A DNA stretch of 64,000 nucleotides from Phoronis australis. Taxonomy: Eukaryota > Animalia > Phoronida. The stretch's first letter is position 1. Every line of letters begins with the position of its first letter. Under the pieces are notes generated by a model. It did not search any database, had not been told where the DNA came from, and saw only the letters and a list, made by a program, of their open reading frames with translations. A program made the translations under genes and the position numbers. Positions 34,901-62,304 of the stretch are shown here, piece by piece. The stretch spans positions 384,300-448,299 of the forward strand of contig NMRA01000288.1 of the NCBI GenBank assembly GCA_002633005.1. The letters are read 5' to 3'.

Positions 34901-37900
34901 GATCTTACTAGGTGGAAGGTGCCTCAACAGTGAGAATAAAATAAGAATAATTATAACAAAAACACTAATAATAATAATTATGGGAATTTCATATTAAAGC
35001 TGTAGTAATAGTATGTTGTAAAATGTTATCATTTTAGTAGATTGGGAATAAGGGCTCTTGTCCAGTTGTTTGCCTCAGGGAACGGAGCTCTCGATGCCTC
35101 AATTTGTCGAGTAATTACTGTATCTCCTTAACCCTTTGAAGGCTCCTAAAGAGGTGATATCAGGTGACGATGAGTTTCGGACCAATCGACCTATAGTTAT
35201 GCTCCCTACTGTCAACTGTCTTTTACGTTTGCCTCTATATCCTTGGCAAGTTCGTGAATTTTTGCGGTGCCACGTTCTCAATTCAAATGGGTTTGAAGCA
35301 TTCTGTGCCATCTTATGGCCATTTTCATGATACTAAAAGCACACATAGAAGCACACATTTTGCGTTGCTCTTGTTCTCATTAGAAAAGGTTACCTTATCA
35401 GAGACCACAGGCTCCTTTCTTCTCAGGTGAACATGCACCCTGGGAAGGAATTTGATCACTTCAAGTTGACCACAGAGGGTTCACCAGTCGCTATGGTATG
35501 TGTGCTAGTGCCATCCTGTGGTAAGGTTTGTAAACGTTATTGAAGTGACAGAGGAACACTTATGGGCAAAGATAGTTGTAGTTCATTCTCTCTTCTTCAG
35601 GTGTCAAGACTCACTTTGTTCGTCGGCACAGCGAGACAGCATTCATTGCTGAAAAGTGCGAAATGATCCCCATTGAGTGGGTGACACGCCGTGTCGCCAC
35701 TGGCTCATTCCTCCGACGGTACACTGGCATCAAAGAAGGCTACCGCTTCAACCCTCCGAAGCAGGAAATCTTCTACAAAGTTCGTCTGCTTAGATTATTG
35801 TTGACAATTAGTGACATTTTCACTAGTGCCTTTACCTGTTCTCAAATTGGCCTCAAAATGTTCCTTTCTTTGATGAGATCCAGAGTTGATTTTAAACTAG
35901 AGTTACTCCTCAATGTCGGGCACTGCTTTCCTGGAAAGTGCTTGGTCTACATTTGTGCCACCTTCATTCAAGTTCGAACCCAGGCCTCAGCAATTCAATC
36001 CCTTGTCCTGTCCCTTCAAACCCTCTGTAGCTTTCCGCATGAAATGATGAGATATAGACTTATGTAATTCGATATTGCACTCATGATTTTTATCGCTTCT
36101 TCCTAGGATGATGCTAACCATGACCCCCAGTGGCAGGTGGAGCAACTAGTCGAGGCTCAGATCAAGTGCAATGGTGTCGTGATTGGCCAGCATGAAATTG
36201 ATATCATGTTCAAGACGTCTGTTACCGTGTTCGAGATCCTGGAGAGAGCATGGGCTTCCCTCGATTGTAGCTTGATTGACATGAAGATAGAATTTGGGGT
36301 TAACACGCATGGTAATGATAACAAATTGAGCAATCTTTTTTATGTATTTAGAGATAAATAAGTGAACAGCAGATTTGTTGGAAGTCTCAGCAGGTGTCAA
36401 ATTAATTGTTTCTATCGGTGACATGACAATGATCGACCTACCTATACTATACATCTTGTGTCCCTGGAACAAAAGGGTAACTTACTGAATTGCACTGTTA
36501 GAAGATTACAAGCTCATAGCTCAAATAAAGAAGGCCTTCATTGTCGTATTAGTGCTTAACTATAATATTCAATGCTGGCATAGACCAATAACGTTTCACT
36601 TATTCATTGCTGGCAGTTTTATTTTGGAATGATGTTAAAATATCAAAGTATTTATCTGATATTTAACTACAGAATCTGGGTCATTGAAAGGAAAGACACC
36701 TAATGGTCACAAAAGATTACATTAGATTATAAATAAATCTAGGCCATAATATCTATAGGACCACTCATTAGATTTAGCCAAAGCTTACATAAGTGGTGTT
36801 AGACCTCATGTTTTTTCAGTTGGCTTATGGGAGGTGGTTAATTTAGTTGGGGTATACAATTCCATTCAGGGTGAAATGCGCTTGTCAGATTTTGTTCAAG
36901 TTTTGCACAGAGATGATGAATTGGAAGACTATGATTTGTCTCTTCATGGGATTCTTATCAACTGGGGTTTGGGAAGGGTCAGTTCAGGTATTTGGGGGTT
37001 CAAAGGCACTTCTACAGACTCGTCAGATTTTCAAATTTTATGATATGGTATAACCTGACAAGACGACATTTTCACACTTCCAACATAATGACTTGGCAAA
37101 GTGTTCTTCACAAAGTTGCTGTAGAATGACTAAAAATACATAAGATATGTGATTGGACAATTCGCTAAGAGTTTACTCACCTCAATATTGTCTTATTTAA
37201 TAAATAAACAAAATGTGCCACCAGAAAGCAAGAGGTGTCCTCTAGATTACAGTGCCATGAAGAAAGTTATAGTATTGTTGGTATTCCAGTCATTGTGTTG
37301 TGGCTATTCACTTCTACTTGAGGTCTCCCATTGTGAATTACAGTATCCAATGAAAATTGAAAAGGACCTGTTACTTCCAGTCTCATCGAGTCCCATGAAC
37401 AAACAATACCTTCAAAATTCTAATTTGGTCAGTGCGAAAGTGCCAGTTTTAGTAAAAACAATGATCCTAAATAATAGTTGTTTGTCGCATCTGTGATAAC
37501 TGTCCGGCAGTACATGTATATTGTTTAAGTTGGAATATTGAGCGTTTACTTATACTATGTGAGGAATAGTGAGTGAAACCACAGTTTTCAGTCATATTCT
37601 ATTTTCTCATTGTGGGGAAATAGAAGTCATGATTGCGAATATGCTTTACTATAAAGGAAGATTTGTAACATAGTGATATTGTAGTTATATGTCAATGTGT
37701 GCTCCATTGATTAGGTTTTAGGTGTGAATCTTAACAGATGCTCCCACATCTCAGATTCTTACAAGCTCATTCAAATAATATCTTTGGACGCTTGAACTTG
37801 TTTTAGGTGAGGTTGTTCTTGCTGACATCATCGACAGTGACTCGTGGCGCCTATGGCCGTCTGGTGACCGACGTCTGATGAAGGACAAGCAGGTCTACCG

Positions 37901-40900
37901 CGAGTTGAAGGAAGTGACACAGGAGGCACTGCAGACAGTCAAGAGGAACTTCCAGTGGGTCGCCGAGCGACTCAAGGTACAACCACCCCCTCTGATATGA
38001 GTTTTACTGGGGTTGTGTTCTGTAGACACAATACATTAACTTGTACTTGCAGTGAAAAAAATCTTCGCTTATTAAATAGAAGCGTAGAATTCTAGTCCAT
38101 GATTTATGAGGTCAATCCCATATTTCAACATTACATTCTCACCATCCAATCACTTCAGTGGCTGCCATTTTGATAGGATAGGCTAGTAAGCTCCCAATTG
38201 CAGTCACAAAACACTCTACTTCTGTGATTTAAAAAATAATTTGCAGGCTATATGGTACACGCGTTGTAGCAGACATGTGCTCAGGTGTGTTCACTGCGCT
38301 GATCACCTGGAACCATTTTATGCTTAATTAATAAATAGTTAAAACTGTGCTGAGGTGGTAGAAACCTGAGTCAAGGGTCCAGCTTGAATAAACGAAGCGG
38401 ACGCATATCCCACGAGGCTACACTGCCACCTCTACTCGTGTGATTTTGCGAGATCTTGCTCTTCTCTCGAAAAATTTTGTCTAAGGAAAGCTACCCTATA
38501 TTCAGTCATTGTGACTGCAAGATGAAGCATGCCTATATACATAATGTCTGAATCATAACTATTAAGTAAAATTTTGACTTGATCTTTTATGCAAAGTTTT
38601 GTACCCTCAGGAATTGACCCCAGAGCCTCAAGCACGTGCTGTTGTACTGATGGGGTCGCCCACAGACACATCACACTGTGAGAAGATCTGGAACACGTGT
38701 AAGACGTATGGCGTGCCGTGTGAAATCCGTGTAACGTCTGCGCACAAGGGAACAGACGAGACGATGAACATTCTTGCTGAATATGAAGGTCGGTTAGGTT
38801 GTCGAATGTTGCAGTAGGGAAATTGCTTTGCGCCTGGCTTATGTAAGAAACATTTGATTTGGGGCAAATACTTTAATGACATTGATTTCATCTCATTTCT
38901 TATGGTTTAGACATGTTTTCTGTTTTTGGGAGTTATGTTTTTTGCTAATGCCTGAGATCAGACTGCCCAAATTGGGTTGAAAGGTTTATGGAGTACAAAA
39001 AGTAATATGGTGGAAAAAGGCAGATTTTATGATCTACACTAAATCAGGGCTTGGAATTTTCCGCGGAAACGCGGATTTCCGCTTTTTGCAAATGTGCTGT
39101 CCGCTTTTTTTATAATATTTCTGCGTAAAAAAATCGGATTTGATATAAAATTTCCGCGGCAAATTCCTTACTTACCGCGGCGTCGCAGACGACATCCACC
39201 TCGAAAAGCGGAAGTTGCTCTTTATGTTTCGAAGGAACGTAAATTGTCAACATTGCCGGGGCACCTGGGACAGCGTGGTGGGATTTTCAATGGCGTCTCG
39301 TATTATTGTTAAGCGCGGCGACAAATACTACCGCTCTGCAGCCAAAAATGTGTGGGGTTGGGAGTGCGGACGGGCGAGCTAAGAGCTAAAAGGATGCAGA
39401 CGCAAGGTACTGATGGTGGTAACGTTTTTTTTTTCTTTTTTTTTTAGACCTCCCGATTTTTGTCGAGGAAAGGTTCACATTGACCATTTCAAGGCATGAT
39501 TTGGGCCGTAAAAGTTTCCGCGTTTTTTTGTCATTGGTCATTCCAAGCCCTGCTAAATAAAGGATAAGTAGATAAGATCAAAACTGGATTTTGAATTTTG
39601 TTTCAGTTTTTCCAATGCAGTGTGTGTTCTGGCTGTGGCACCTGCAACTAATAAATCAGTGATTGAAACAAAACTGAATTCAAAATCTTGTCATTAGCGT
39701 ATTTTAGAATCATTCTTGCTTTATCTAAGTGCATAGCTGCAACTGTATCACACAAGATTAGTGCGGTTAATCATTTGGGGTTTTGTTTGCAGATCTTTAG
39801 TGGTCATACAGCTCATGGTCGTCGCTTGTGGACATTTTGACAAAATTAAAAACAGTATTTATGCTACACTGGAAAGGTTTCTTGGTGACATTTTTATCCA
39901 AGCATATTCATTTGCCTTAGCAAAATGTCTTTGTCTTCCGTCTTTGTTTTGTGGCTCCATTGCTGGTATGTTACTGAGCACATAAGCACGGCCAAACGTC
40001 CGCTTGTTCCTCTCAGGTGATGGCGTACCCACTGTGTTCATCGCTGTCGCTGGAAGAAGTAACGGTCTGGGGCCCGTCCTCTCCGGTAACGCCACCTATC
40101 CAGTCATCAACTGTCCTCCAATTACTGCTGACTGGGGTACGGAGGACATCTGGTCATCACTACGGTTACCGTCAGGTAAAGTGGACTGACGACACATGTA
40201 ATTGCTCTTGAGATGTTTAAGTTGTGTGGGGAATGTGCAAAGCAACTGGTTCAGTATGATTCGGTCGAGTTTGGTGTACTGTACATGTCAAAAGTGGTCT
40301 GACAAAATGGTCCTGAATTTCCCGTCGTGACGGCTGCGTGGAAGCTGAATTTATGGTCCGAGTTAATTTCTATCGTAACCAAGAATAAAGAGGAATTTAA
40401 CAGGAAAGTTGGGGAAGTGACGAAGCAAAAAATCTATAACTTTATTTTAAGCCCATATCAAGTGCATGGGATTTATTTATTAGCGTTTGCCCGTTCGCCA
40501 AGCAAAACGCAAAATGTTAACGGTTTTTGAATTTGAGTAGACAATTTTTTTAAAGAATTCCAGATAGCAAGATGCAACACATAAGATTTTGCCGATATTT
40601 TTGGTTGAAATTGTTTAATTTAGAACACAATGTGGCATACAAAAGAGTTTTATTTTGTCAAATTTCTAAACTAAATTAAAAGTTATGAAAATGTTAATTC
40701 CTTGTCAAAATTGTGTTACTGTTTGATATTCTTCAGACTTTTTGAAAAACTGGGTCAAGGATCTAAACTTTGTACTCAAAACTGAACTTAAAATTATTTT
40801 TGACGTTTACCCGTTCTACGTTTGTGCTTACTAAAGATAACTGAATTTGATTCTGGGCTTGACTGTATTTGGGATTAATTGACTGACTGTCTTATCTTAG

Positions 40901-44049: not shown

Positions 44050-44551
44050 GTCCCTTACTCTTAAGCTATGAAAACGGCTATGTCGGAAACGCAGATAGTC
44101 CGACAAATCCTTAGCGAGTCTTTAATATGCGTTACAATGTACGTACACTTGTTTGTGTTATGCCTTGAAACTTTCCCACAAAAGCGGACTTTCCTGAGAA
44201 ATTCGCTGTTTTACATCACACCCGGTTTTTCAATCCACTGAGCGATGCTCTCCAGCAGTAAATTGAACATACGGTACATAATAGTTCGAGATCGTGAGAA
44301 AGGTTTTAACCTAATTAAATGACATCAAAATGCAACTCGCTCCTCTCCACTGCCCGCCGGTTGCATGAAACAGTCCAAACTAGGGTTTTCATTTAACTCT
44401 TTTTGAAAGTCACTTATCTCAGTCAAAACACGAAACATTATCAAAAATAAAATTTAATATCTTTATTGTTTTATTCATGGTAATAATACAACAATAATTC
44501 CAACGTGACTTACTGTGTACGTCGATGATGACGTTTCTAACGAGACACCGC

Positions 44552-44958
44552 TCAGATAGTTACCTCTGGACTCGCGTCATAGTAAAAACTCTTCACTTCG
44601 TCTTCCGCGTTCTCTAAGCTTGTGGGTGGAAATTTACCGGCAATGTCGTCAGAATGCGGCAAAGCTTCAACATCTGGAGGTCCATCTGCTTTGGGCAGTT
44701 CGTGACCATCCGGTGGCAGTTGTAAAGTATCCGGAAGTTCCCCGGTGGGCGGCTGTTCGTCGACTCCTTCTGTCGCGTCCTGTTCTTCTTCCGGTGCCAA
44801 GTCTTCAAGAACGTGCTTCCTGTTTTTCTTAACAACCGCCCACACGATGATACCAATAGCTAGCAGCAGAAGAATTACGAAGATTGGAACCAGAATTGGA
44901 ATGAGGTCGATCGAGCCGGTTTGCTTGGACGTCTTCGATAACTCTTCATCGGTGTCCC
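44552..44958 (-). CDS. Transmembrane and cytoplasmic-tail exon
   Basis: LIPILVPIFVILLLLAIGIIVWAVV followed by the KKNRKH stop-transfer signal and an acidic tail; acceptor TTTAG at 44959-44963; ends at a donor at 44563 or the TGA at 44552. Confidence 0.8.
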
Positions 44959-47900
44959 CTAAAGTAATCCAATGAAGTAGAAATTGACTCACAAAGAACC
45001 TGTAACCAATGAAAACATATTGCATCTTACATCTTTCAAACATCGTTGCTGGTTTTTATGTTGTAATATGGACATACACCGCCTATACGAGAAGCCAATT
45101 GCATATGGACCCAATGCTGGCAAAATGGATTCCGATACTACAATGGCTGCTGTTTGTCAGTCTTCTAATGGCCACTAACTTAAATGGTGAACAGATTTGA
45201 ACTCCCCCGCGCATCCTAATGCGGACACGTGACCCCACAAGGCAGTTGGAATTTTGTTATTCGTTGATCTTAACCTCTATGTGTAGCTCTTCGCGATCTC
45301 ACGCCGATTCCCCGGCCCCCTCCAGTCACCGCACAAAGCACAAACATGTGTGTACTTATACGTTTAAACGTAACTGAATCTTTGAAAATTGCGGAGAAAC
45401 GTCTTTTGTGATTTTGTCGGACAGCACGTATTGCTTTGAAGGACATATTGGCTGGGCATTCATTTGCAATACTTAAGGGCTGGAGTGGCTGCTAAATAGG
45501 AGCTCTTTGTCAAAAAAATCATTGGAGGCAACGACCAGAAAAACACTTACCTATAGGTGTAAAAATAATGTCGGACAGTTTGCATAAATATCGCGTTTTG
45601 GGAGCACATACAAATCATGGCGCTTGAGTGAGTTATTGTCTATGCGTTGAATGCGATTACGTTATATCTTGTTGGCATTAATAAACATGATGAAAGTTTC
45701 TTCTTCAACAAATTTGAAATTGGTGTTTTCGGAAAAACTGGTTTGAGCATGAGGTCTCCATAGAGCCCAATTAACGTACGCAGAATTCTATGTTAGGTAA
45801 CGAGAAACGGGTGATGTATTGCATTGACGGTATTGCTATACACCTCCGCCATATTGATGATAACGTTGTACATTGTTCGCTTGCCCAGTGGTAATCTCTT
45901 CCAGACATCGCATCGAAATCTACGTATGAAACGGCAGTCTTGGAGAGATTGCCGCTGCTCCATGTCCTAGTGCATAGGTTTACTTCACATTGACTTTTGT
46001 GCTAAAGGTTCGTTACAAAGCCATATAATTAGAGTTTGCTTGCGCACTGTTTACAGTTACACACCAAAAGTTAGTGTTCCCAAGGTTGGTGGTGAATACG
46101 GCTAAATTCTAAATAAACCGATTTTTCTATATTATATGCATCGAAACCATTGCCAACGAACCCCTCACAAGAAGCCTACCACACAATCGATGACGATAGT
46201 GAGCTGGTTAGGGATCTGTGTTGGAATGTTGATGGGTGACTTTCGTTAACAACTGGACAAACCGCAATATTACTGGATCTAGCCTCTTTACGAGCAGAAC
46301 GGTCTTAAAACGAAAAAATCCACCACGTGACAGCGTTTGTGGGACTTCGACACGGTAACTACATTCTAGTTGTGATCTAAATGTGTTTATCGGAACTATA
46401 AATGTAGTGACCGGTGGTAACATTTAACATTGTTTACGAACTCACTAGCTCCTAGATGATTGTAATATTGTAATCGTCCTAATGCCCGTCACTACCGTAT
46501 TACATTGGCCACGTACATGGTATGCTCCCTTTCCCGCCACTGAAGTGGCTCAGCACATTTGTAATGTGGGTCCATGAACACATGTCTGCAAACCAGGGGG
46601 ATGGAAGTCGTACTACTCCCTTCCTCAGCAATCGCAACCTAGGATACCATCACAAAACTGCATGAAAAGACCAAAAAACAATTAAAGGGTTTGCCGGATG
46701 ATCGGGGCCGGGCGAGCAAGGGTCCAGGGTTTCAACAGGAAACAACTGCGTACAACCCCCGCACCCTCCCTCTTACATTCTTCCTGGCAATGGGCCCAAT
46801 ATGAAGCTTTTATAAAAAAACAGGGACCGGGAACGTTTTAAAACAGAGAACTGCGTTTAAAAGCACACACTAAACCCTGTTTTGATTATTTCAACCAATC
46901 CTCGTTCTGTCACTTGCTAATGCATCATTGGCGTCAGTCTTTAAAGACAAAGGCAGGGATCCTCACTCGATCTCACAAATTGGATGTTACGGTCCTTGAT
47001 GGGTGTTTTTCCCACAATTGCCGTGTAATTTGCTTAAAGCGTAGGTCACGCTTGCTCGTTTAGCAAACGTTGAAAGGAGTTTTCAAATTTCATCCAAACT
47101 TTTGAGGGTTGTCGAGGGTTACAGAACATTATTTTATTTCATCCGGGATGGAAAAGACGTTTTTAGTATCTGCAGGAAGGCATTACCGATTGGGTTTATT
47201 ACCCTTTTAAGGTGGGCAGGAGAAAAATTCATAGGAACTTTCAAAAGTGTCAATTTCTTGTCGACTTCATCGTGAACTTAACAAGTGTGTAAGACCTTCG
47301 TGATGCACGATCAACCTCCAGGGATGGGCTGTTGACACAACCAAGCCGACACGTTAGTCAAAGACATCAAGTTGGTAGGTTTTACAGATTTCGAACAAAA
47401 TGGAAGAAACATTCTACGACCGTGCCCTAAGGTGGTGTAACGGGTGCGTGGGCACCCCCAACCATCGGGATTTGGGGTCCGCCTAAGCAATCAGAGTTCA
47501 ATTCATATTACATGTACCTGTAATTTTTCAATTAACTCTGTAATACTCTTTTACTAAAAATACTTTTCGTTGCACTCATGAAAGGATGTCAGTTATTAGC
47601 AAACTGGACAAACCGCTAAGTTTAGTATTTTCGGCAGCTCTAGCTGTGGTCAGCTCAAGTTACGAAGAATGCACGCGCGATGGGAGGGGTTCATTTCTGT
47701 GGGCGCGCGCGTTGTGAACCCTGGGTACGCGGGTTATATGAACATATCAGGTACACAGCGGTCCAATACACAGCCATCAGACGGATCGCCCTGAAATCCT
47801 ACAAAAGGGCAAATATGCTGACAACTGTTATGAACCAGTCCGACGCCTCCGACGGCAACAAGAAGCCATTAATAGACTCATGTAAAACAAGAGGGTCAGC

Positions 47901-50900
47901 GCGACACAATGCGCCTTTCGCCATTTCCACCATGTTTACATTGTGAGAGCCTTTGAACTCATTGCCCACAGACAAGCTGCAGCATGTGAGGAGTACGCAG
48001 AGTTCGCGGAAAGATGGGAAACTAATTGCAGACGTTTGATTTTATTGTCGTATTTCTGACAGTATGTCAGTATCTACCATAGATAACAACGGTATCAATG
48101 CAGCGACCAAATTTTGTTTGATTTAAATGTTCACGATAAAAGCTCAAAAATATAAAAAATACTGTAGGCGGTCTGGTACACACGTTGTACCAGACGTGCG
48201 CAGGCCGCGCCTGTGAGCCCATTGCAGTGATCCCCTGGAACCATTTTTGTGCTTTGTTAATATATAGTTAAAACCGAGCTGGGGAACTAGAGACTTGACT
48301 CCAGGGTCTGGCAGTGTGGCCCAGTGGGACTGGAACGCGGCTACCTCGAGAGAGAAAGCGGCCACCTGTCACACTAGACCACAGTGCCTGCTCTAAATCT
48401 CAAAAAGCGTGTTACAGTTTTTCAAATTATCGCTTTGTTTTATCCAACTTTGGAGTTTTCTTAAAGAACGAAATGTCCTATTTTTTGACAGTCCCTCAAA
48501 CACAATTGGAACATTTTAACAGCAATTCCTAACCGTATGTTGGAGCACAGTGCACCGGCAAAGCATAGTACCTCTAAGTTTCAAATGAGTCCGGTCAATC
48601 ATTTTCCACATACGATGTCTCGAAGTTACCCAAACTTGGCCGTTTTTTTTTAGAGTCTGACATAACCTTAAAGAACTTTGGGTGCCTAATATTTTGAGAA
48701 AAGTAGTGGAATTTTATAGCCTGTGAAATTTTGTTTTGCATTTTTGAATGAATGGCCTACGGCGGTTAGTCGTAGTCGACCTACCTGGACATTTTGATAT
48801 AGTTGGCAAACATTCTCGAATGTTCTCGGCCTGGTCTGCTGTCGGGCAACCATTCCCGCCGTGAGAAGGCGGCGGATTGTCACACGTTCGTTTGCGTTTC
48901 ATTACGCCTTTACCATCACCACAAGTGACGGAGCAACTACCCCACGACCCCCAACTGCTCCAGTTTCCGGAAACTGTGAAGACAAATAGCGGATAGTTTA
49001 AGACAGAAAAGTCTCCAAATGCTATGATGTGAAATTCCATGTACAAAAAAATCAAACTACAGATCCACCAAAAGCTAAATGTGTTTCAGGTCACACACCG
49101 CCAAGCAATGAATTTGTCAAATTATAGCGTCATGGCAAGCGTGCAGTTTAGCACACGCTAATTCTTTCCGTAAATATTTTGCACTTTTTGAACAATTTTC
49201 TGAACGCTTTTGTTTGCTATTTGGACTTGAATAACATGTAAGTTTGCCCCTATTGAACTACGAAAAATCACAACCCTACCCGGACAAAACTTTTGCAACA
49301 CACAAGGTCTCTCTTCAGTCTTTTCCGAACATTTTTCCGGTCCTTTGTTGCACTCCCTTACACGTCTTTTAATCCCCTCGCCACACGTCTTGGAACAGGT
49401 GACCCAAGCTCCCCAGTCGGACCAGATTTCGACATGTGCTGTGCAACATAGGAACAACTGTAGTCTTACGGGCTGTGAGCCTCGGCAACGATGTGTCGTT
49501 ACAGTGAAATGAAAGTCCTGTCGTCCGTAAAAAGATTGTAACGAGTGTGGAACACGTAGACCAAATCACAGACTGGAACTTGTTTTATCAAAGGTCGCAG
49601 GTCTGCATGTACTGAGCTAAGGTCGTAAGCACGTTATTGCGAACTAGAAGCTGAGTTTTTTAAATGAGCGGAAACGTCACTATTAACTCCCGTCGTAGCA
49701 AAGACGTTCGTATAGTCAATTGGTATTGGTAAACAATTAGTTAATGAAAGTGGTCTTTCAACTTGAGTGTGAATTATGGTTACGTTTACGTCACCAATGT
49801 TAAATTTTTGCAAAACAGACAACGTAGTCTTCGCAATAACTATGCGCCTACGATCGTCTTCCATCACTTTCGATAAAACGGGATCCATTTACACAGTCTT
49901 TTTATTGCCAGTAATAGAACATACAGACAAATGTTTGTGCAGGAATGCATAACAGCATGCACTTGATATCTAAATGTGAACACACGTGCGCACGCACAGG
50001 CAAACACGCATTTCGAAATCAGGCATCAAATTTAACCGTGTCTAATATTTTTAAAGAAAAAAGAGTCAAAGGCAGACACTTTTTTCTAGTATTTCATATT
50101 CATAGTTTCCAAAGACACGTGTACATTTTAGTAAGGCTTGTAAGACATATACTTCCTGAAGAGTTCAAGCAGTAACATTTCGAGTCTTTGGCGGTAAATG
50201 TATTATTTTCCCAAATAAGCGAGTAAATTTTAAAACCTGATTCACGCAATTTACCAAAGAAAACATCTCTAGGTAAACTTTGGGTTTTGAAAGTAACCAT
50301 TTCTACAGTTTTACCTAATACTTTCAACACTACGGCGGCGTCCTGTCTAGAATCAACGAAAGTCTGTTCATTTTCTTTTTTTAATACATTTTATTTCTAA
50401 ATACACTAATATTTACAAACAATAAGATCTTTGCAAATGAAAGACAGGCACACGCACACACACATATCCAAATAATAGAAATTCACGGTTGGTCTAAAAT
50501 AAATAGGCATTGATGGTTTCCCAAAAGGCAGTTTTGCGGGATTGTATATTCCTTACTTTACAATAATTATACAAGAAACATTGAAATTGTGAATATCTAG
50601 AAATAATCTGGTTTCTAGAACATTTATGGATGAAATACTGGCAAATAGTTAATATGGTACTGATATCTTCAAAATTACATCCAAAATATGCTGCAAAAAT
50701 AACATTTTTATCTTAGATTAAATCGTGTTGTGCAGTTATACGTAAATTAAAAGTTTTTGAATTTCCCACCACAAAGTTTTCACAGAACCACATTCCACAA
50801 ACATATGGTTAAAAGTCCCAACAGTTCCACAAGATGCACACTTGTCATCACTGACTAAGTTCATCTTTTTCAAAATAAGTTTTGTAAACACTTTTCTATG

Positions 50901-53900
50901 AATATAGAAGTACTTAAAGGTTTTAACATAAGGAGGTAACAAGAGTTTGAGTGGAAGAACATAAATTTGTTTAATTCGTTGTCTAGAGTAAATGTCAGTT
51001 AAGCTATAGTCTATGTCAGTAGGCGAAACAATTTGGGAAAGCAAAGTATTTCTAGAAAACACATAAGTAATTTGGCTTGACTAGGGATGTGTGCGTTTTG
51101 AAATCGAAGGACCAGCTTTCAACTTAATCGCACGTCTCAAAGCAGCATAATGAATCCAATTTGAAAGGTTATATCTATTTTTAAAAACCTCCCATGTCAG
51201 AATTTTATTTTCAAAATTCAAAAGATCCTTCACAAAAGTAATACCAGCCTCAAAGAAACTGTTAAAGAATACAGTCCTCCTATTAATCAACATGTTTTTG
51301 TTATTCCATACTACTTGGTTTACAATTGTTATGTCCTTCTGTAAATGAGCACTAACTTCTTCCCAAGCAATCAAGATGTCAAGATAGAAGGTATCAATAT
51401 TTGCAAGAGACAGCAATTTACATAATTTGATTTAAAGATCAAAATACCTCCATATGTTTTAAAAACATACCCTGGAAACGCTTTGAAAACTTCATTGTTT
51501 CCATCTAAGCAACGCGTAACCCATTTAACTAATAATGACTTGTACATAATATTTATATCAGGAACTGACAAACCACCATTTTCATCGGTATTTACAGCCA
51601 CATTTTTTTAATTCTAGGTGGTTTATTTTGCCAAACAAATTTTTTATCATAGTATTTATCTTAGCTCTACTTTCGTTGTCAATTCCTAAATTGCTCACCA
51701 CATTAATTATTTTAGACAGCGCAAATGTTTGAATTACATTGATCCTTCCTAACAATGAAATATTGCGACTTTTCAAGATATCAAGAGACTTTTTGAAGGA
51801 CTTAATTTTGAGTTCATGATTTAAAAAATGATTTTCTTTTTTGTTATGACTAAAAAATATTCCCAGACTCTTGATTGATTTGCCAGTCCACTTGAATCCA
51901 TAAAGTGGTTCAGAACACTCTTTTTCTCTACCTAAATATAACCCTTTAAATTTCTTAATATTTAGCTGGAGACCAGAGAGTAAACCAAAATGTTCTAAAA
52001 ATTTGAGACAAGTCATGCCAGAATTTTTGTCATAAAGAAATAAGATAGTGTCATCTGCGTACTGGAGAATTTTAACTTTAGTTTTCTCAACACTTATGCC
52101 TTTAATTAAATTACACTGCGTCAATGCACAAATAACGACCATCAGGATCTTCGATACATCTTTTAACTGTAACATTTAAGTTGTTGTTAAACATGATGGC
52201 AACACCCCTGCTGTGCTCTGACCCATGAGCAGCATAGATTCTACTTCCCCCACTCATGTTCCCATTTATTAATGTTAATCATTATACTGTATGTTTCTTG
52301 TAAAAAGGCAATATCAACCCTCTCCTTCCTCAAAAAGGAAACAAATGCTGCCTCTTCAATTCATGATTTAAACCCCTGCAATTTAACGATATGAAGTTTA
52401 AGCTAACCATTGTCATCAATTGGGAAATCACAAAACCTATAACTAGATAAACCACTATAAAACCTTTCAACAAAAAATAAATGAACCGTGATAACGAGAA
52501 TATAGAAACCATTCACTCCGACACACACACACACACACCTACGAAACAACAAAAAAATATAGGCAACTGAAAGAATTCAAGTCCATCTCGTTCGGTCCGT
52601 CTTCACCATCTGGCTATCCACTTGAAGTTGCAAATTGAATATCTTCCGTACCCTTGATCACCTTTACAGTATAGTTCCGTTTGTCAACTGTACATAGATC
52701 CTGCCATCGCTGGACCAGCTACTTATGACTTTATCATTCTTGAATGCAGACTTGAGTAAATTATAGATTAGCGATGTAAGGTCTTCTAAAATATAATATC
52801 CCGTATCTTTTAGAACCTTCTTCTGTTTAAACACCTTTTCTCTAGTTTGATAAGAAATAAATTTCACAATCATTGGTCTCGGAGTTGTTGATTGGACAGA
52901 GAGTCTTGACACTCTACCTGTAGTTTTGAGTTTCCCAATTCGGTGCGCACGGCCAATCTCTGCAGGTTTAACTTTTACTTTAAGAGATTTTTCCAAAGAC
53001 TCTGTCACTGTTTGAATACATACTTCAGATTCCTCTTCTTTCAAACCATAGATGCGTAGACTATTCCTTCTTGAATACTGCTCAAGAGAATTCCCCTTTT
53101 CCTTCAAGACCTCATTTGCCCTTTTGAGCTTGACCAGTTCTTCATTCAACTTCGAAACCTCCTCTTTGATGATAAGTTTCACAGATTTTGCAATCCTCTC
53201 ATCTAGTTTAGCAAATCTTTCCTCTAACTGTTTTGCATCCATCTTGACCAGTATAACACTCAGCAAGGGTTATTTACACTCAGTGACTAACCTAGATTCC
53301 TTTCAATCATCCATGGTGGTTTCGAATGGTGACCTTTTACCACCAAAAGCAGGGGTCTAGTTCAGATAGCACTAATGTTGGTCAGTGAGTTGCCACTGAA
53401 CACAGCTATATCACTCATAGGAGGACAAGCCCCACTACAAACAGCAAACTTTATCTGGTGAAAGTATCTAAAACCTCGAAACAAGTTCATCAAAGTCTCT
53501 GACACAAATTTCACCTCTCTGCAATTTCCTGCCTGCTCCTGTACGTTCTTTTGCAAAATATTTCAGCGCGCAGCAGAATTGAAAGCACGGATCCACAGCA
53601 ATGTGCTATTTGGTGCGAGGAGGACAAAGCAACTATCGTACAAAAATAAAAGAGCGAAAGCGAGGCTCAAAATACCGCAAATCATCCAAGATTAGCATAA
53701 TAATCTTTTGCGCGAAAGATTCTCGAGCCGCACGCCATTCGATCACGCTGAATTCAAATTGCTCCACCTAAAAAGCAATTATGAATCAGTTTATATGTCC
53801 ATAAGTGATTCGTGCCTAGCCTTGGTACAAACCTGTTAGTCTACTCACAGCCGCTGTCTGGCCAACTCGAGCCCAGCGGAAACAATGTGGAGCACTATCC

Positions 53901-56900
53901 GGGCATCAGTCCAAAACCGCAAACACAAAACAACGATGAACCATACCCGGAAAATATGCGTTCACACCCGCTTACCTTAACGTATACGTTAATTGCCGAA
54001 CCACACAATAAAACAACACATGCATAGTGAAACTATATAACCTATACTTCAAAAAGACTTGAAAATTTTATGATAACAACAAAATCGAAATTCCATTTTC
54101 CCTCAACCCCCAATTATTAAAACCCGCTAGGTCCGAAAAGTCTCCTTCCGTTCGCACGCGTACTAAAAACCGGAAGATAGTTGTTTTCCGCAATTCCGCA
54201 ACGCGAGCGGCCACGATACCCAACATATGGGGATGTCCGGACATGTGGGGTTGGCCCCCGGAAATGCGGCGCGTGTGTTTCAATCAGGACCCTGTCCTAA
54301 GGGATCTGCGCGATGGCTTCCGCATGCTCCAGTGACGTTTTCATGGAGATACTACCGATCGAAAAGTAGGTGTTTGGAAAACTTTCGGCCCAGTCCGGCA
54401 CTTCAGACACCACCCCGGAAAAGCAGTGCAACTGAATCCCGGTTTCGCGAGGCAACTGCTCTTGAGCAATTTCCAAAAGTAACCGCCCAGCAGTATTACC
54501 AGGCTTCCACACTCTGGCGACGATCGCGACAGTGTAGGATCACCGCTCGGCCGAAGCCTATCTAGGAATTCGCCCACTCCCGGAACACAGCACTCAAGAA
54601 AGTCGACTGGGTCGAAACGTCGCTATCGGTCTTCAGATCTAACCCAAGTTCTCCTAGCGTCACGACACGACTATCCTCCCAAAACCGAAGCATCTCACTG
54701 GGATCGGTCCCCGCTGTTACTTTCGATGGGTGAAACCCAACCGCAACTCGGAAATAGCCCCCATGCAAGTGCATCGCAGTAAACCGCTACTCTACCCACA
54801 ATGGACACTTCAACCGGACTGTCCACTGGTCGCTCCATAAAACATCGCCATGACTCCTCCGATGGTTGAGTATTCCGCGTACAACGGTCAACATGGAAGT
54901 GAGCGTCGAAACCGCAACTCATCTCCTGTTATCCAGTCGCAAACATCACATCAGCAGGAGTCATAACCTCCCTACCCAACATCGGTGTAAACCCCGTTGA
55001 CCGGCTTACACACGCTCGAATAGCTCCCGCAATTTGCGTAAGAGATTCCAATCATTCTGAATGTCGCGCACGTAACACCGAATCGCTTTCATTAAGGTCC
55101 GGTTGATGACGCTTCTTTGCAAAATATTTTGAGGGAGTAAAACACCTGCTGTCGCTCAACTATAAACACACAGCCATAATTTCCTCGATCAATGACGATG
55201 GGCTTTCCGTCACGATAAACGTAATTGTAACTCATGGGGTCGTGAACAACAGTCTCATCAACATTAATAGCAAAGTCTGGCAGATCGAGAAGCGGCGACG
55301 TCTCGAAAGCTAGAAATGAAAAAGCAGGTTCATATCTAGACCAACTTCTGTTGTTTCTACTACGCTTTTTCCATAGAAAACACTGATTTCACTTTTCGAA
55401 ATGCTCTTGGAAAAATGACAACTTTTGGATATCCCCTTGTCGGTCTAAGCCATCTGCGTCATCGCTCATACCAGGTACTGGCAGGAATCGAGTTTCTGTA
55501 ACTTCTTCCGGGAAAATGTGTAGAGTACCGTCTGTAATCAAGCCCAGGCTCTTGATCGCGGAGTTCGGATTACTATCATCTTCACATCTTTTGGAATCTC
55601 CAGAGGATGCAGGCGGTGATAACTTGCCACCCTTAGCTAAGCCCTCCTATTCGTGAAATCCCAAACTATCGACGTCCCGCAGTGTGGTGACTATACGTGG
55701 ATCTTGACTAACGTTCAAACAATGTACATGTACACAGTTGTCACGGAAAGGTCGCTTTTGTTTTGTTCGTTGTTTGCTAGCAGCAAAACATCCAGGTAGA
55801 GGTGACTCGTTACTCTTGACCTCGTGACCGTTGCCTCTCTCTCAACAGGATAATGTATCTATGTGGTTCTCGGCTGTTACTCATATATGTTGCCCTGTTT
55901 TGTAATATCCCTTTTTCGGCATCACCAAAGCAACCAGGAGGAGGTAAGTCGTTACTTTTGGTCTTCACCTCGTCAAAATCCCTTCTCAGCTTTGTTTCGT
56001 CCGGGTTGGTATTGTAGTACATTCAAGGCAAAGGCACACCAAATACTCAACAAAGATTACGACAGCGCAAACAGACGACTTGTCAGTCGGAATACCACAA
56101 AGCCAAGGAAGCAGACGCCCTCTTACGACCGCCGAGTCGCGTGTGAGCTTTCCATTGGTTGTTGCCGTCAGTTTTTGAGGGAGACAACTCCACAGCTTCA
56201 CAACACGGGCCTTAAAGGCGAAGGCAACCTTTTTCATGTCATTTTGAGCTAAAATAAGGTTGGTTGGTTATCCTAGACATACTTTCCACTTAATTACAGC
56301 TTTTCGTAATTTTATTAACTACTCGTCCTCTACTCCGGAAGTGACGTTTTAGGAGGCAAGCGTTTCCCGCCACTTGGTTTTGCGTTGATTTTACCGTGAG
56401 AATCTGTTCTATTCTACTTTTGTTTCGTGCTGTTTTTCAACAATTGTCGCCACCACTTTCCATCGGCGAGTATTCTGCGGCAAGATAGGTTAGTAGGGAA
56501 CTCAACTACGTTGGATTTAGAGATTGTGTAGTATGTTGTACGTTGAAAATGGCTGGAGTCGGTGACCCGTATCACAGTGACAGTAGTGTGAGTGACGGAG
56601 ACCTTGTTCACAGCAGTGGTGACGAGGAATTTTTTCACGGACATTCAGTGGATGGGTACATGTTTGAGCCCGAGTATAACGAAGGCAGAGTACGCACAGG
56701 CACAGGCAGCTGTTGAGAGAAACGAGACGGCTACTGAGGACAGACGTGGTGACACATCTTGGTGGTAATGCACTGTGTGATTTGTTATGCCTACCTTAAT
56801 GGAATGCTTGTGCTGTTCGACGAGGCCAAGCCACTACTGGACACGGTTAAGTGGACCTCCGGCATACCACGGACAGAGGAACAACTGTCCCACTTGCCAG

Positions 56901-59900
56901 AGTGTCCCGCGACACACTCCCACTGGATGGTGACCTGAGCACCCAAACTGCTTACATCGTGTCGTGTGACTCCCTCGCCACACACCTGGCACCTTCTAAA
57001 TAGCTCCAACACTTTAGACAAGTCCACAATAAACTTATCAAAGTTTGGCTCACCGATCTGTTCACTGGACGACGAACTGTCCTCTTCACTGGGTGTCGAA
57101 CTGGGCCTGTAATCACTCCCACTACTCAATATCGCTGCAGGGCTGCTTAGAGGCTCTGGGCTGGAGAAAACAGCACAGGGCGAATCACTACTGGTTCCAG
57201 GAATGGCACGCTCTGGGGGTACGTTCGGAGGCACGGGTGACAGTAGATGAAGTGCCTCCACTGGCTCCAGTCACTGTACTGGCCACAGCTCGCGAGGCTT
57301 CTCGCTTCAAAAACGCACTTCTCGGGGGTGGCGACGGGGCACTGCCGGGAATCAACACAGACGGAATGGCATCCTTCTTCAGGCGTTGTTTCTCAGGGAC
57401 CTTCATCATTTCAGCGTACAAATCCCTTTCGTAATTGGACGGCAGAAAGTGTTTGCCACACACACGGTAATTCTCGACTGCTTTGTACGTTGCGTGGACG
57501 GGTAACACTGCGTTCTTCACACGAGCGAGCCAAGTACGGCGAAGTGTGTCATCCATCGGAAAGCGATGCAAAGGTACTCCCAAAGCGCGCGTGAGACGAT
57601 AATTAGTACATCCCGGTACGCAGCAACAGTGTGGCATGTTGACTGACTAGTAAATGAAAGCAAACGACGACGGAACTTAACACAACCGAGGTAGAACAAT
57701 GACTGAGTCGGCAGCTCTCACAGTCACACTATATGAAAAGAAATTGGGGCGAAATGCTTGCCTCCTAAAACGTCACTTCCGGAGTAGCGGACGAGTAATT
57801 AACAAAATTACGAAAAGCTATAATTAAGTGGAAAATATGTCTAGGATAACCAACCAACCTTATTTTAGCTCAAAATGACATGAGAAAAGGTTGCCTTCGC
57901 CTTTAAGCTTCTGAGAGTCACTGCCATCTCCTCGAGTCCCTTTTCAAAAGTAACTGATAAAATTCCATGTCTATCTCGTCTACCGGGGTGTATTAAATGA
58001 GACAGCAGGAGAAGTCGACATTTGGCCGTGCCACCGTTGCTATTGCATTTACAATTTGTCAAACGAAAACTCGAACTCGTATCACAAGTAAAAACCCATA
58101 GTGATGTTGAGCAACTGGATGACTATTTAATCGAGGGTGAATGTTTAGAAGTTTTAAAGATTTGTAAAAACAATGACGTCTCCAGGAAGTGACCGGTTAA
58201 ATTATGAGTTCTATAAATATAACTACCACGAAGCCAAAAAGCCTGTAGTTGAAGTACTTGAATATTTTTAGTAGGGGAATTAATTACGCCACGGAGACAA
58301 GGAGCCATGACGCTTCTGAAGTCTAAAGATGATGCCGACCAATATCGTTATAAAACATCAATTATGAACTACAATAAAAGTTCTTACAGCCCGTCAACGG
58401 TAAAGCACGATATTATTAAATATAAAAATACTCATGGTCAACGTCATTTTCCATTTTATGATTTTTTAAAAGCATGCGATTCAATAAATGGGACTTTATT
58501 TTTCAAATATTAAATATTTTCAATTCTGGACAGGTTTTTACGAGTACTGAAATTTAAACTAACCCAAAATAGATTTGTCAGTAATGGTTTTGCTAAATAT
58601 TACTTTCCGACAGAAAAGGGCGTGAGATGGTGATTCCTTGTCAGACTCATTACTTTGTACAGTGAACTCCAAAATATTACCCATACTACTTTGCATGAAA
58701 GGTGACGCCACCCTAGCAAATGATTGACGAACTGCTATCAACAATAAGGTGTATACGAGTGTAATTTACTGGCTCTCACCAGGTGGCGAAGGAACGAAGC
58801 TATGCACTCGTCTCGCTGGTTCCCTGCGTGTCCGCTTAGGTGTCGGGGGACACGCAGATATCCTTTAAATTTCCTCGGGAATTTTTTTACACCGGCGTTT
58901 CTGATTGACTGGTCGAATTGTCATCAAGTAGGACTTTATACTTAAACAAACCAGCATAGTGGTCTGTTGTACAGAAAAGTTGCGACATGTTCTAGAAATG
59001 TGAATCGGAAATTTGCGGTTGTGCGTTTTCGACGTGCGCATTTTTTTACTGTCGCTGACTTCTGTTTACGTTGCTGTCCTGTATTCACACACTTTGAATA
59101 ACTCAGCCAGATCTGTGTGCATTGTATGCGCTTCAAGCACGCGGATATTAAACATTACTGCAGAAACGAAGTATTTGCTGTTACGCCACTTGCATGACAA
59201 GGCTAAAAATCATTCACAGTCCGCCGTTTTCTTTCGTTGTGAAGTTAACCAATAACTACCGAGGTTACATCAACCAGTGATAAAGCGCGTAGCGGACACG
59301 CAGGGAACCAGGGTTACACTCGTAAGACCGAGTGTAATCCACGTGTCGGTGTGTAATGCACTCGTATGAAGCGCCAAAGTATGAAGCGCCAAAGGGTCCT
59401 TAAACGAGCACATTTCAACGGGTAGAAATGTACTCGTTCAGCGCTACTCCGCACATGGTCTAGCTACAGGCGGTGCACCACAGGGGGGCTGAGGGGGTTT
59501 TAGCCCCTCCACTTTTTTCAGAGCTGTGCCGCCCATGATACGTGAGTGTAAAACACACTGAAACGCGAGTAGGCTAAAACCGATCGGCCTACTTACTGGT
59601 GGTGACGTTAACAGACACCAATTCACTGCTTGCCGTCCCTACCCCCGCAAGACCTGCGACCGTCTCAACGCTGACCCGGTAGGTTAAACCTGGCTTTACG
59701 CCCTTCAGTGTTAATGATGTTTTGTCCACTTTGTCAACCACTAACGTTTTCTGCAACCCTCTCTGGCCGATAGCTCGCTGGTTCCCTGCGTGCTTAGCCC
59801 AGCCAGCACGCAGGTATCACGCAGTGGCACGCGCTTTAGCATTGGTCGATGTAATCTTGGCAGTCATTGGTTAGCTTTACAACACCGTGAAAAAATGATT

Positions 59901-61873
59901 TTAGCCTTGTCATGCAAGTGGCGTCGCAGCAACTATTTCGTTTGTGCAGTGATGTTTAATAGCCGCGTGCTTGAAGCACATACATGCACAATAAACACAT
60001 ATTACGGTGTGTTATTCATACTGTATAAAGACACTATCGTAAACAAAAGTCATCGACAGTAGAAAGATGCATTCCGAAAAGGCTCAATCACAATTTCTAG
60101 GCTTCACATTTCCTGAACATAATTTTAAGCACCGGTTTGTCTGTACAACAGACCACATTTACACTTCAGTCCATCAGCCATGCCAGTTTGTTTGCGCAAA
60201 GCGCTGCCTGTTGACGAATCGACTAGCCAATCAGAAACGCCGGTGTAAAAAAATTTACAGAGGAAATTTAAGTGATACCTGCGTGCTGGCGCGGCTACCG
60301 CCCCACCTAGCGNGGCCGATAGCAGCGTATTTTACGCGGTAGTGTGTAAAGTGCCCGGATGACGGCGCAGTCCACGTAACATTTATTTTATCTTCAGATG
60401 CGGTGGCTTTCAGACCAAAGGGAGAAGACGGTTCTGAAAAAAGTTCAAATCCACACAATGATACTCCAATGGATGCAACAAGGTTGGCTTCGGAGACCTA
60501 TTTTAGTCAATTCTGTCCAGCTGGTCTTAGTAGAACATTTCAGTAATAAATCGAGATGTAATTTGGCCAAGAAACAACACACTGTTCAAAGGCTGTTCGT
60601 ATAGGGTGAGCCGACCACGTGACAACTATTTCCATGTTGAGGAAAGCCATATATACCTGGGTTTTCATAAACGTCCACCAGAGGCGAAATTTTAATTTAG
60701 ACCACTTATTATTCTTCTACACAATTGGCGGTCTCAAATTGTTCCTTCATAAGATGATAAGAGATTTATTGGGTTGTGAAAATTACGCTCATTATTAATA
60801 CATGAAACCAAGCTCGGCACATAAAATGACACGCAGTGTCAAACGAATTTGAAGAGATTGGGCTCAAGAAATAACGAAATGTCACTTATTTCTTTCGAAG
60901 CCATAGAATCACGTAAGGACTCTAGATCGATTTTTTGTGATTGAAAGCGGGTTTATTACCACGTTAATATTCACAGTGTCACAGTATAGTCTACTATGTC
61001 TGTATCTTTTCTGTATCTGTATCTGTATTTGCGTATGTACATGTACTGTTTTTGTATTTGTACATTATTTTTATACGTATATGTGTATGTATTCGTATAT
61101 GTATATGTATATATACGGGGCAAAGTCTTCTGTTTGTGTGTCTTTCTCGTTTGTGATTGTGTATTTGATGAGGATTAGTGTAAAATATGTCCAATTGGTG
61201 GCGTTTAATCCGTCAACTCCTTTTGCAACAAACATCAGATGCAAAGGTGGAGAGGGCTCTTGACTAACATGCAGTGAGTCGAATGCTGGTTTTTCAGTTC
61301 AGTACAATAACTAATAATCACATTCCTCAATTATAGTCCATAAGTAAGAGGGCCATTATAAAAACACACGATGACTGTAAAATGAATAAAATATCGAAAA
61401 TTGGAAGAACTGTGTTGTACTAATTTCCCATGGCACACAAGTAATGCACAGGTCACGAAAAAGCAGACACCCGTGAGATTTTATCAAAGTAGGCCGAGTT
61501 TTATCGTCATAACATCAACACAGCACTTCCAGTATATAAAGTAAAGACACGAAAAACACGAAAGGAAACCGACTGATCTTCTTACTGGTGGTGATGTTCA
61601 CTGACACCAATTCACTGTTTGCTGTCGGAGCTCCAGCACTTCCTGCGACTGTCTCAACGCTGACCTCGTAAGTTGAGCCTGGATTTAAATCCTTTAGCGT
61701 ACACGATGTTTTATTCGGTTTGTCAACCACGATCGTTTTCTGCGACCCTTTCTCGCTGATAGCCTTGTATTTTACGAGGAAGTGTGAAAAGCTACCAGCT
61801 GACGGCTTAATCCACGTGACATCTATTTTATCTTCTGTTGCCGTGGCATTCAAAGCAGAGGGGGGAAACGGTT
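44552..61873 (-). CDS. Partial type I membrane protein with FN3 and TSP1 repeats (5' part outside the window or unresolved)
   Basis: Phase-1 symmetric exons: FN3 61586-61873, FN3 59597-60433 (interrupted), TSP1 49280-49438, TSP1 48785-48973, then TM + acidic/Pro-rich tail 44552/44564-44958. Linking them into one gene is inferred from strand, order and phase. Confidence 0.7.
48785..48973 (-). CDS. Thrombospondin type-1 repeat exon
   Basis: GNWSSWGSWGSCSVTCGDG...KRKRTCDNPPPSHGGNGC; phase 1-1, GT-AG. Confidence 0.9.
49280..49438 (-). CDS. Thrombospondin type-1 repeat exon
   Basis: WSDWGAWVTCSKTCGEGIKRRVREC; phase 1-1, GT-AG. Confidence 0.9.
50371..53745 (-). mobile_element. L1/Tx1-clade LINE, internally deleted and frameshifted
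   Basis: ORF1 52664-53266 (LEQYSRRNSLRIYG, AHRIG, PRPMIVKF, EDLT). ORF2 start with APE motifs SLNCRGLN and FLQET (~52410-52290), jumping to RT QYADD (~52040), GGLSVPD, and a C-terminal CxxC..H...C finger (~50800). AATAAA and A-rich tail at 50371-50396. The 5' end is approximate. Confidence 0.9.
52664..53266 (-). CDS. LINE ORF1 protein (coiled coil + RRM-like)
   Basis: Open 200-aa frame with typical L1/Tx1-type ORF1 motifs. Confidence 0.8.
   Translation of the reverse strand: MLSVILVKMDAKQLEERFAKLDERIAKSVKLIIKEEVSKLNEELVKLKRANEVLKEKGNSLEQYSRRNSLRIYGLKEEESEVCIQTVTESLEKSLKVKVKPAEIGRAHRIGKLKTTGRVSRLSVQSTTPRPMIVKFISYQTREKVFKQKKVLKDTGYYILEDLTSLIYNLLKSAFKNDKVISSWSSDGRIYVQLTNGTIL
54170..54922 (-). 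pseudogene. Intronless TatD-family nuclease pseudogene
   Basis: All TatD motifs in order across frameshifts and stops: DAHFHVD, AVGFHP, LGELGLD, VILHCRD, LHCFSG, IP*DRVLIETHAPHF, HPHMLGIVAARVAELR. Confidence 0.9.
54929..55110 (-). mobile_element. Ty3/Gypsy-type integrase core C-terminal fragment
   Basis: INRTLMKAIRCYVRDIQNDW / LTQIAGAIRACVSRSTGFTPMLGREVMTPADVMF matches NRTL..W...STGFTP..MLGRE; one frameshift. Confidence 0.8.
55113..56022 (-). pseudogene. Decayed intronless ORF ending in a protein kinase N-lobe fragment
   Basis: One frame from ~55820 to 55113 with two stops, ending in IVIDRGNYGCVFIVERQQVFYSLKIF (Gly-loop plus subdomain II Lys). Upstream frame 55810-56022 shares a KSN..P.PGCF repeat. 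Confidence 0.55.
56549..56825 (+). pseudogene. KolX / P2X7-ballast(nanor)-like ORF remnant
   Basis: Acidic N-terminus, GYMFEPEY, RRGDTSWW*CTV*FVMPTLMECLCC (decayed WCxCxxCxxMPTxxECxCC). Confidence 0.75.
56791..57637 (-). pseudogene. Kolobok transposase N-terminus (THAP domain + Cys/His finger), frameshifted and truncated
   Basis: MPHCCCVPGC..LHRFP..W..VCGKHF..LKKDAIPS (THAP), then KFIV..LF..CQVC..G..I.WEC..GH..W. Confidence 0.85.
58290..58640 (+). mobile_element. Degenerate L1/Tx1 reverse-transcriptase fragment
   Basis: MTLL..., DFLKACDSI (DFxKAFDSI), NGF, EKGVR.GD-like motifs. Confidence 0.6.
58812..59316. mobile_element. Non-autonomous element with subterminal 21-bp inverted repeats
   Basis: CTGGTTCCCTGCGTGTCCGCT...AGCGGACACGCAGGGAACCAG; flanking direct repeat CACTCGT. 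Confidence 0.8.
59597..60433 (-). CDS. Fibronectin type III exon interrupted by a transposon (halves 60323-60433 and 59597-59773)
   Basis: PSSPFGLKATASEDKINVTWTAPSSGHFTHYRVKYAAI / GQRGLQKTLVVDK...LKGVKPGLTYRVSVETVAG. Rejoined length is 288 nt, the same as the neighbouring FN3 exon. Confidence 0.8.
59774..60312. mobile_element. Related non-autonomous element inserted in an FN3 exon
   Basis: Same left end CTCGCTGGTTCCCTGCGTG; flanked by GGCCGATAG on both sides; right end cut by N60313. Confidence 0.75.
61586..61873 (-). CDS. Fibronectin type III exon
   Basis: PFPPSALNATATEDKIDVTW...LKDLNPGSTYEVSVETV; 288 nt, phase 1-1. Confidence 0.9.
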
Positions 61874-62304
61874 CTGAAATATGTTGAAATCCACGCATTG
61901 GTGCTCCAACGAATGCAACAAGGTTAGCTAAGGAACCGTATTTTAGTTAATTCCATCCAATTGGTCTCATTAGAACATTCTGATAGTAAACCGAGATGTT
62001 TTAAGCCAAATAATAGCACACCATTCAAACGTTGGCGGTATAAGACGAGCCGACAACGTGATAACTATTACCGTCCAGTTTGTTTTTTGCGGGTATCCAT
62101 AAACCCGCCTTCCGTCCAAGATGCGAAATTTGGATTTAGACTACCCACCGCCGTAAAATTTGCCTCCACTTGTTCATTACTCGGATGAAAAGAGATTTCT
62201 TGGGTTGCAAAAATTCACAGTTCCTGATTCCTTGAAATTAAGCTCGATGCATAAAATGACACGCAGTGCCCAGCGAAGTGGAAGAGTATGGCGTCAAGGA
62301 CTAA

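Follow-up and report, generated by a model that had tools for sequence, protein, structure and literature searches.

A dead locus in Phoronis australis, very probably derived from a Ty3/Gypsy clade whose separate ORF3 ends in a TatD nuclease

Introduction

On the minus strand of the window, that is, the whole stretch of 64,000 nucleotides of Phoronis australis DNA analysed here, the end of a Gypsy-type integrase core lies immediately upstream of a TatD nuclease. Is this contact the layout of a retrotransposon family, the scar of a deletion, or the chance meeting of an integrase scrap and a host pseudogene? An initial annotation, made from the letters of the sequence, had proposed a Gypsy lineage carrying its own TatD, either as an accessory ORF or as an extension of pol. 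We conclude that the locus is very probably a dead, likely deletion-shortened Ty3/Gypsy fragment of a clade with a separate TatD-ended ORF3; both pieces of the window match the same elements, and this statement concerns the identity of the locus and not the substrate of the enzyme.

Results

The locus consists of a decayed TatD domain and an integrase scrap

By three-frame translation of the minus strand, TatD starts with an ATG at 54922 and ends with a stop at 54119-54117, a length of 806 nt; the domain measures about 270 aa in intact relatives, so that the window TatD is full-length and intronless. The six motifs listed in the initial annotation (HxH, GxHP, GELGLD, LHCR, HCFSG and ETxAP) were each located on this strand, and two pieces pass the Pfam family TatD_DNase (PF01026) with 36.8 and 43.1 bits (E 3.7e-9 and 4.4e-11; curated cut-off, 27 bits). 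The metal-ligand columns are kept except the last Asp column. Together with the frameshifts and stops given in Table 1, these data bear out the description of a complete, intronless and decayed TatD.

Table 1. Features of the locus and of its immediate surroundings (window positions)
Feature	Positions	Strand	Remarks
Decayed LINE	50100..53563	minus	downstream; limits approximate; separate from the finding
Non-coding stretch behind TatD	53870..54116	minus	also present in siblings of this copy within the genome; part of the 3' UTR or of the LTR; approximate boundary
Purine-rich tract proposed as PPT	54096..54111	minus	present, then TG; indistinguishable from chance
Decayed TatD domain	54117..54922	minus	in intact relatives, this domain ends ORF3; about four frameshifts, two in-frame stops
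Scrap/TatD junction	54923..54936	minus	single TAA at 54931-54929; inferred deletion breakpoint 54931-54935
Gypsy integrase core-end scrap	54935..55104	minus	about 56 codons, one frameshift, one 3-codon gap; truncated at both flanks
Separate low-copy repeat joined to the upstream end of the scrap	55105..56211	minus	broken at 55105
THAP-domain element, high-copy, with terminal inverted repeats	56212..57906	minus	inserted upstream; separate from the finding

The integrase scrap (170 nt, spread over two frames) is 63-70% identical over 54 residues to all six relatives compared, an identity gauged solely against the 68-85% found among the relatives themselves (15 pairs). Matches to relatives by tblastn have E values from 6e-13 to 3e-10. 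The assignment to a Gypsy-like integrase core end on the minus strand is thus confirmed; the motif string that had been read there is present as well, but it requires a frameshift near 55043 and lacks three codons of the relatives. At the other end, contigs of the runs X1, X2 and X6 have loose ends at 55105, where the copies of the upstream repeat go on with other letters, so that the scrap starts at a break. Four intact elements supplied 11 queries (gag, pol and ORF3) for a search of the window, in which only the scrap and TatD matched; a profile of the ORF3 middle block gave no match, and neither gag, RT, RNase H, other ORF3 parts nor paired LTRs were found in the window.

A polypurine tract followed by an LTR start had been proposed at about 54111. 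If a candidate is defined by 11 or more purines in 13 with TG next, the minus strand of the window has 78 equally good sites. The letters behind the tract at 54111 are TGG, against TGT in three relatives; the tract is no better than chance, and the proposal is not supported. The sequence shared with the siblings does extend further, to about 53870. In L039, L069 and L072, a purine tract followed by TGT lies 391-724 nt behind ORF3.

Word-based protein searches with the window pieces gave 233 and 313 candidates and none at E 0.001, because these pieces are decayed; a profile search found 7006 of 7999 candidates. The viral contigs scanned contained no relatives, P0001 had no Pfam or useful PDB match, and the Atlas returned generic TatD clusters only, at 0.76-0.77.

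The surroundings of the locus

The surroundings were examined with contigs of four DNA runs from one sample, at 80% likeness, in place of a whole-genome search. Low-copy repeats extend across 53200-56200, and single-copy DNA, covered by one contig, was seen at 53802-53868. Diverged contigs span TatD and about 250 nt behind it (e.g. with 37/409 and 32/284 other letters), and one contig chains patches from 54106 to 54764. TatD is multicopy in the Phoronis genome; contig depth yields no copy number. Two RNA runs made from other samples gave 249 and 198 matching reads, of which 7 and 2 were 99% alike and the remainder came from relatives; the cover on TatD was 0-8 per direction, and zero over 54874-55074. 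The window copy is dead, and adds only one more host to the clade.

Several neighbours deserve mention in their own right. The best-covered part in the two RNA runs corresponds to relatives (80-95% identity) of the repeat at 55105-56211. A frame at 55646-55092, with one stop, ends in a motif that by eye only resembles the glycine loop of protein kinases, and the kinase search on the upstream frame of this repeat gave no Pfam or PDB match. The THAP element has 172-nt inverted arms (88%), a thousands-fold depth and TTAA at its ends; we take it to be Kolobok-like and apparently non-autonomous. Within the LINE, an ORF1-like frame (52664-53269) and an RT piece (51582-52175) were noted. A host gene with FN3 and TSP1 exons covers 44500-62000 on the minus strand, and the relic, co-oriented with it, appears to sit in an intron some 10 kb long, flanked by an FN3 exon that ends near 59594 and by a TSP1 exon near 49440. 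Nested pairs of inverted repeats surround the FN3 exon (59123-59208/59899-59984 and 58863-58937/60198-60272, within 58863-60272). On the plus strand, exons of a PAICS-like SAICAR synthetase occupy 24000-38900, inside a tandem duplication of about 6.2-6.8 kb with copies 88-99% alike.

Gypsy elements of one clade carry TatD behind pol

Related loci were obtained by a motif scan of metagenome contigs (63 loci) and a profile scan of genome contigs (16). They come from a handful of assemblies, judged by contig prefix, and are not independent; in addition, they were picked by a TatD motif, so that counts of HxH are partly given by construction. Twenty-four of the 63 metagenome matches were TatD of the clade and one more, L057, was cut at the contig end; the others were chance or bacterial matches. 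Altogether, 32 loci gave a TatD match of the clade.

We observed Gypsy pol parts upstream on the same strand in all 11 clade loci holding at least 2.6 kb upstream of TatD, L046 showing the PHD finger only and L019 gag, protease and PHD. Some Gypsy part is present in 17 of the 32 loci, the other 15 holding 292-2545 nt upstream, and in none of the seven bacterial TatD loci listed. The order in intact elements is gag, then protease, RT, RNase H, integrase and PHD finger (PR-RT-RH-IN-PHD), then a separate ORF3 of 700-1100 aa ending in TatD, a PPT and the LTR start; it is linear in L004, L005, L012, L051, L069 and L074, and wrapped through the LTR in L039 and L072. Pfam, applied to 28 frames, identified gag (PNMA, CCHC, Ty3 capsid), aspartyl protease, RT, RNase H, integrase zinc finger and core, and a C-terminal PHD finger, while the nine TatD-bearing ORF3 frames gave TatD only. 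Gag followed by the PR-RT-RNase H-integrase order was observed in L004, L005, L012, L039, L051, L069 and L074, and the best match of the L051 RT-RNase H among solved structures is Ty3 (E 6.5e-74). Terminal repeats or wrap-around overlaps were found in L012, L019, L051, L069, L072 and L074; no LTR pair with a target-site duplication was seen in the long contigs, which are collapsed or wrapped and without flanks. Thus, the central idea of a Gypsy lineage carrying its own TatD holds, and the opposite outcome, a TatD clade unlinked to Gypsy pol, is not what the loci with sufficient upstream sequence display.

Particular elements show peculiarities. L019:290-5672 combines gag, protease and PHD with an open ORF3 of 755 aa and has no RT, RNase H or integrase match; it would be a deleted derivative that kept TatD intact. 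In L071 an RT is found just 1 kb before TatD. In L072:2823-2827 the ORF3 frame stands directly behind the pol stop in the same frame, and read-through from pol into ORF3 is possible there. A helix-hairpin-helix match (HHH_3, 26.6 and 28.9 bits, cut-off 27) lies at the N-terminus of gag in L012:9553-11094 and L051:228-1751.

Three long contigs filed as a Sedimenticola symbiont MAG (L069, L072, L074) hold whole Gypsy-TatD elements, likely host DNA in bacterial bins; clade proteins are also filed under Ca. Thiodiazotropha. Among the best 120 homologues, 30 have mollusc labels (TATDN2, tatD, YcfH-like) and seven have bacterial symbiont MAG labels; among these, the genomic context was seen for the MAG contigs L067-L074. 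At E 1e-30, the clade profile retrieves 826 representatives at 50% identity, some cellular TatD included.

ORF3 is a multidomain protein with a conserved TatD nuclease

According to an alignment of 34 long ORF3s, the protein begins with a helical N-domain and a disordered stretch; behind these come a zinc-finger-like motif with its helical block, then a variable linker and finally TatD. The motif is of the C2H2 type, C-x4-5-C...H-x4-H. The zinc-finger/helical block occurs in all 80 clade proteins in which 300 aa or more precede the TatD motif, part of which served to build the block profile, and in none of the seven host-type (TATDN2-type) proteins. In the predicted model of the L069 ORF3 there are three confident domains, the last being the TatD barrel; for this domain the top Foldseek matches are all TatD (E about 1e-11, TM 0.82 to the target). 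The N-terminal domains gave no fold match (at best Z 7.1, rmsd 3.2 and 86 aligned residues, helical; none by Foldseek at E 0.001), in searches that barely covered the zinc-finger block.

Seven ligand columns (HxH, GE, LH, HCF, ETD) are kept in 190-193 of 195 clade rows, HxH partly by construction. Synonymous sites are saturated in 16 of the 18 locus pairs that share at least 50% identity; the two unsaturated, close pairs have dN/dS values of 0.12 and 0.13. Both the ligand conservation and these ratios indicate that the enzyme is maintained by purifying selection in intact elements.

The TatD clade groups beside host TATDN2

In a tree of 51 rows, a chosen subset of 212 in which human TATDN1 and TATDN3 are absent, the window TatD falls inside the element clade with support 100/100, and in a tree of 46 rows without the other long branch it does so at 100/98. 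The clade together with seven TATDN2-type proteins is separated from the nine bacterial sequences with support 98/91 and 96/94. The window TatD is itself a long branch (1.3-1.4), at most 36-39% identical to any relative and without close kin. It does not fall within the host TATDN2 group; a tree constrained to place it there is 19 log units worse, a rejection that is borderline (AU p 0.044).

Clade-profile scores are 46-48 bits for TATDN1 and TATDN3, 100 for YcfH and 145-172 for six TATDN2-type proteins. A cysteine about 55 residues before the catalytic Glu is found in the window, in 166 of 195 clade rows and in all seven host-type rows, the control for this column being weak since bacterial rows are mostly unaligned there; TATDN2 cysteines are named in PMC10711561. 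The label host-type rests on source names (five proteins) and on a spacing that matches the human numbering in PMC10711561, 56, 63 and 112 against 55, 63 and 112 in three of the four checked. The tree places the element TatD clade as sister to host TATDN2, and a capture from host TATDN2 is likely.

The integrase-TatD junction

One frame extends from the last 36 integrase codons through a single TAA and two further codons to the TatD ATG, just as the initial annotation had observed. From the integrase motif to the first TatD motif we counted 1835-3230 nt in 10 of the 10 relatives measured, as against 30 nt in the window. In five relatives pol runs on for 188-196 aa past the integrase motif to a PHD finger and a stop, and none of 33 long TatD homologues scanned carries an integrase or RT domain. 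Because of these three observations the junction is best read as a deletion, most likely the origin of the in-frame contact as far as the compared sequences tell, and the early caveat that the tight junction, with its missing integrase C-terminus, came from a deletion is supported by the relatives. Of the two forms proposed, accessory ORF and pol extension, the separate ORF3 is supported and the extension is not, with 0/33 fusions and a pol that ends in PHD and a stop. In addition, in one X2 contig (depth 15, short side of 36 letters; not present in X1) 54930 is connected to 54936 through unknown letters, in weak agreement with a sibling whose junction is longer.

Discussion

We propose the following history. 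A deletion of roughly 0.6-3 kb would have removed the integrase C-terminus, the PHD finger and whatever preceded TatD; a second break would have joined an unrelated repeat upstream of the scrap, and the shortened copy would then have decayed inside a host intron. The deletion would have been smaller, taking only the integrase tail, the PHD finger and a short spacer, if elements of this clade in the host lineage had a short ORF3, in which TatD starts at its own ATG (54922) and is expressed from a spliced subgenomic RNA. We regard this as a tentative possibility, clearly short of even. The ATG stands four codons before the first TatD motif, a CAG with a splice-acceptor-like AG precedes it by three bases, the X2 joint leaves these letters on the TatD side, and the lack of close kin extends to the long-ORF3 elements; but the AG has no pyrimidine tract before it, the two RNA runs hold no read over the start of TatD, and the relatives speak otherwise, by the length of their spacer and by the block present in 80/80 long clade proteins.

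That the in-frame junction represents a real family layout, with TatD reached by stop read-through or with the TAA as a later lesion, is very unlikely. The common frame and the L072 arrangement agree with it, but one random deletion in three keeps the frame, the integrase breaks off at the junction, 188-196 aa short of the pol stop of five relatives and with loss of the PHD finger, and no long homologue is fused to integrase or RT. We give marginally less credit still to a processed pseudogene of host TATDN2 lying beside a chance integrase scrap, one of the two refuting outcomes that had been named at the outset. Such a pseudogene would be intronless and would come from the sister group of the clade, and the AU rejection is borderline; against it, the adjoining scrap belongs to the kind of integrase found in elements with this TatD clade, the placement of the window in the element clade has a support of 100/98-100, and the genome contains several diverged siblings, so that this reading is largely refuted. 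A deletion within an element of the TatD-bearing clade remains our preferred explanation.

What would the enzyme do in intact elements? ORF3 would be made as its own, separate protein, a metal-dependent 3'-5' exonuclease whose N-terminal part, as in TATDN2, keeps it on nucleic acid, with the new N-terminal block as a targeting module. It may clear RNA from R-loops at element copies, which would thereby stay transcribed and replicable. We hold this role tentatively, and favour it because the elements keep their own RNase H. Against it, TATDN2 acts only minimally on plain RNA-DNA duplexes, and R-loop binding requires its own N-terminus (PMC10711561), which the element ORF3s do not share (block in 0/7 host-type proteins). 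Trimming of cDNA or RNA 3' ends, or handling of AP sites, is a less probable role, counter-defence against small RNAs is improbable to the same degree, and any other role is more doubtful again. When the two former roles are taken together as one rival to R-loop clearing, in which ORF3 degrades small RNAs or their precursors, or trims cDNA 3' ends and AP sites in the particle, we consider it about evenly balanced: TatD enzymes degrade single-stranded RNA and DNA from the 3' end (PMC10711561 and the title of an E. coli record), and similar roles are proposed for rotifer DEDDy ORF3s (PMC5408684), but the nearest cellular kin is an R-loop enzyme.

In a broader hypothesis, to which we give slightly less than even confidence, an old and widespread animal Gypsy clade would have taken TATDN2 once and kept it as a zinc-finger-targeted accessory protein that resolves R-loops or blunts small-RNA silencing. 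Hundreds of genes of molluscs and symbiont MAGs named TATDN2, tatD or YcfH-like would be its ORF3s, and the window would extend the clade to a distant host lineage. As to annotation, many public 'TATDN2/tatD' entries of molluscs and symbiont MAGs belong to the clade; a 'TATDN2' is listed inside the Hox region of the giant squid (PMC6962438). With TATDN2, a germ-line R-loop and genome-stability gene, as the likely donor, the clade would offer natural diverged enzymes to probe R-loops on retrotransposons.

We found no description of such elements in the listed literature pairing TatD or TATDN2 with retroelement terms, in a search that lay outside supplements, subscription journals, Repbase, Repbase Reports and Dfam. 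The word TatD is absent from the available text of PMC5408684, PMC6338049, PMC8220671, PMC13524379, PMC6238403 and PMC5718144. Enzymatic ORF3s of LTR retrotransposons are noted in a review (PMC5718144), and those of the Juno and Vesta elements of bdelloid rotifers contain a DEDDy exonuclease and a GDSL esterase (PMC5408684). Like Juno and Vesta, the present elements are of Gypsy type with an enzymatic, non-envelope ORF3 behind pol and a predicted 3'-5' exonuclease; unlike them, they have a TatD amidohydrolase barrel instead of an RNase D-like DEDDy fold, a long ORF3 with a zinc-finger/helical block, and a pol ending in a PHD finger. With TatD, the enzymes that replace env in LTR retrotransposons would include a second, unrelated 3'-5' nuclease fold; this suggests that processing of RNA or DNA ends has been selected for repeatedly in their life cycle.

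Human and fish TATDN2 similarly have a C-terminal TatD behind a long, partly disordered N-terminus (PMC10711561, PMC12709183), the same ligand columns and the same cysteine column before GxHP, and are sister to the clade in the tree. In contrast, the clade TatD is element-borne, intronless, multicopy and fast-evolving, has its own N-terminal block, and shows a longer spacing of catalytic columns (70-71 and 118-119 against 63 and 111-112). With Ty3/Gypsy elements in general (Metaviridae, e.g. yeast Ty3), the clade shares the PR-RT-RNase H-integrase order, a PNMA/Ty3-capsid-type gag and a PPT followed by TGT, but it has an extra ORF3 with TatD in place of env. Finally, orchid Ty3/Gypsy elements with an AlkB-type RNA demethylase are likewise reported to have captured a host enzyme that processes nucleic acids (PMC9289625); those are plant elements with a recently acquired oxygenase, whereas TatD is a nuclease.
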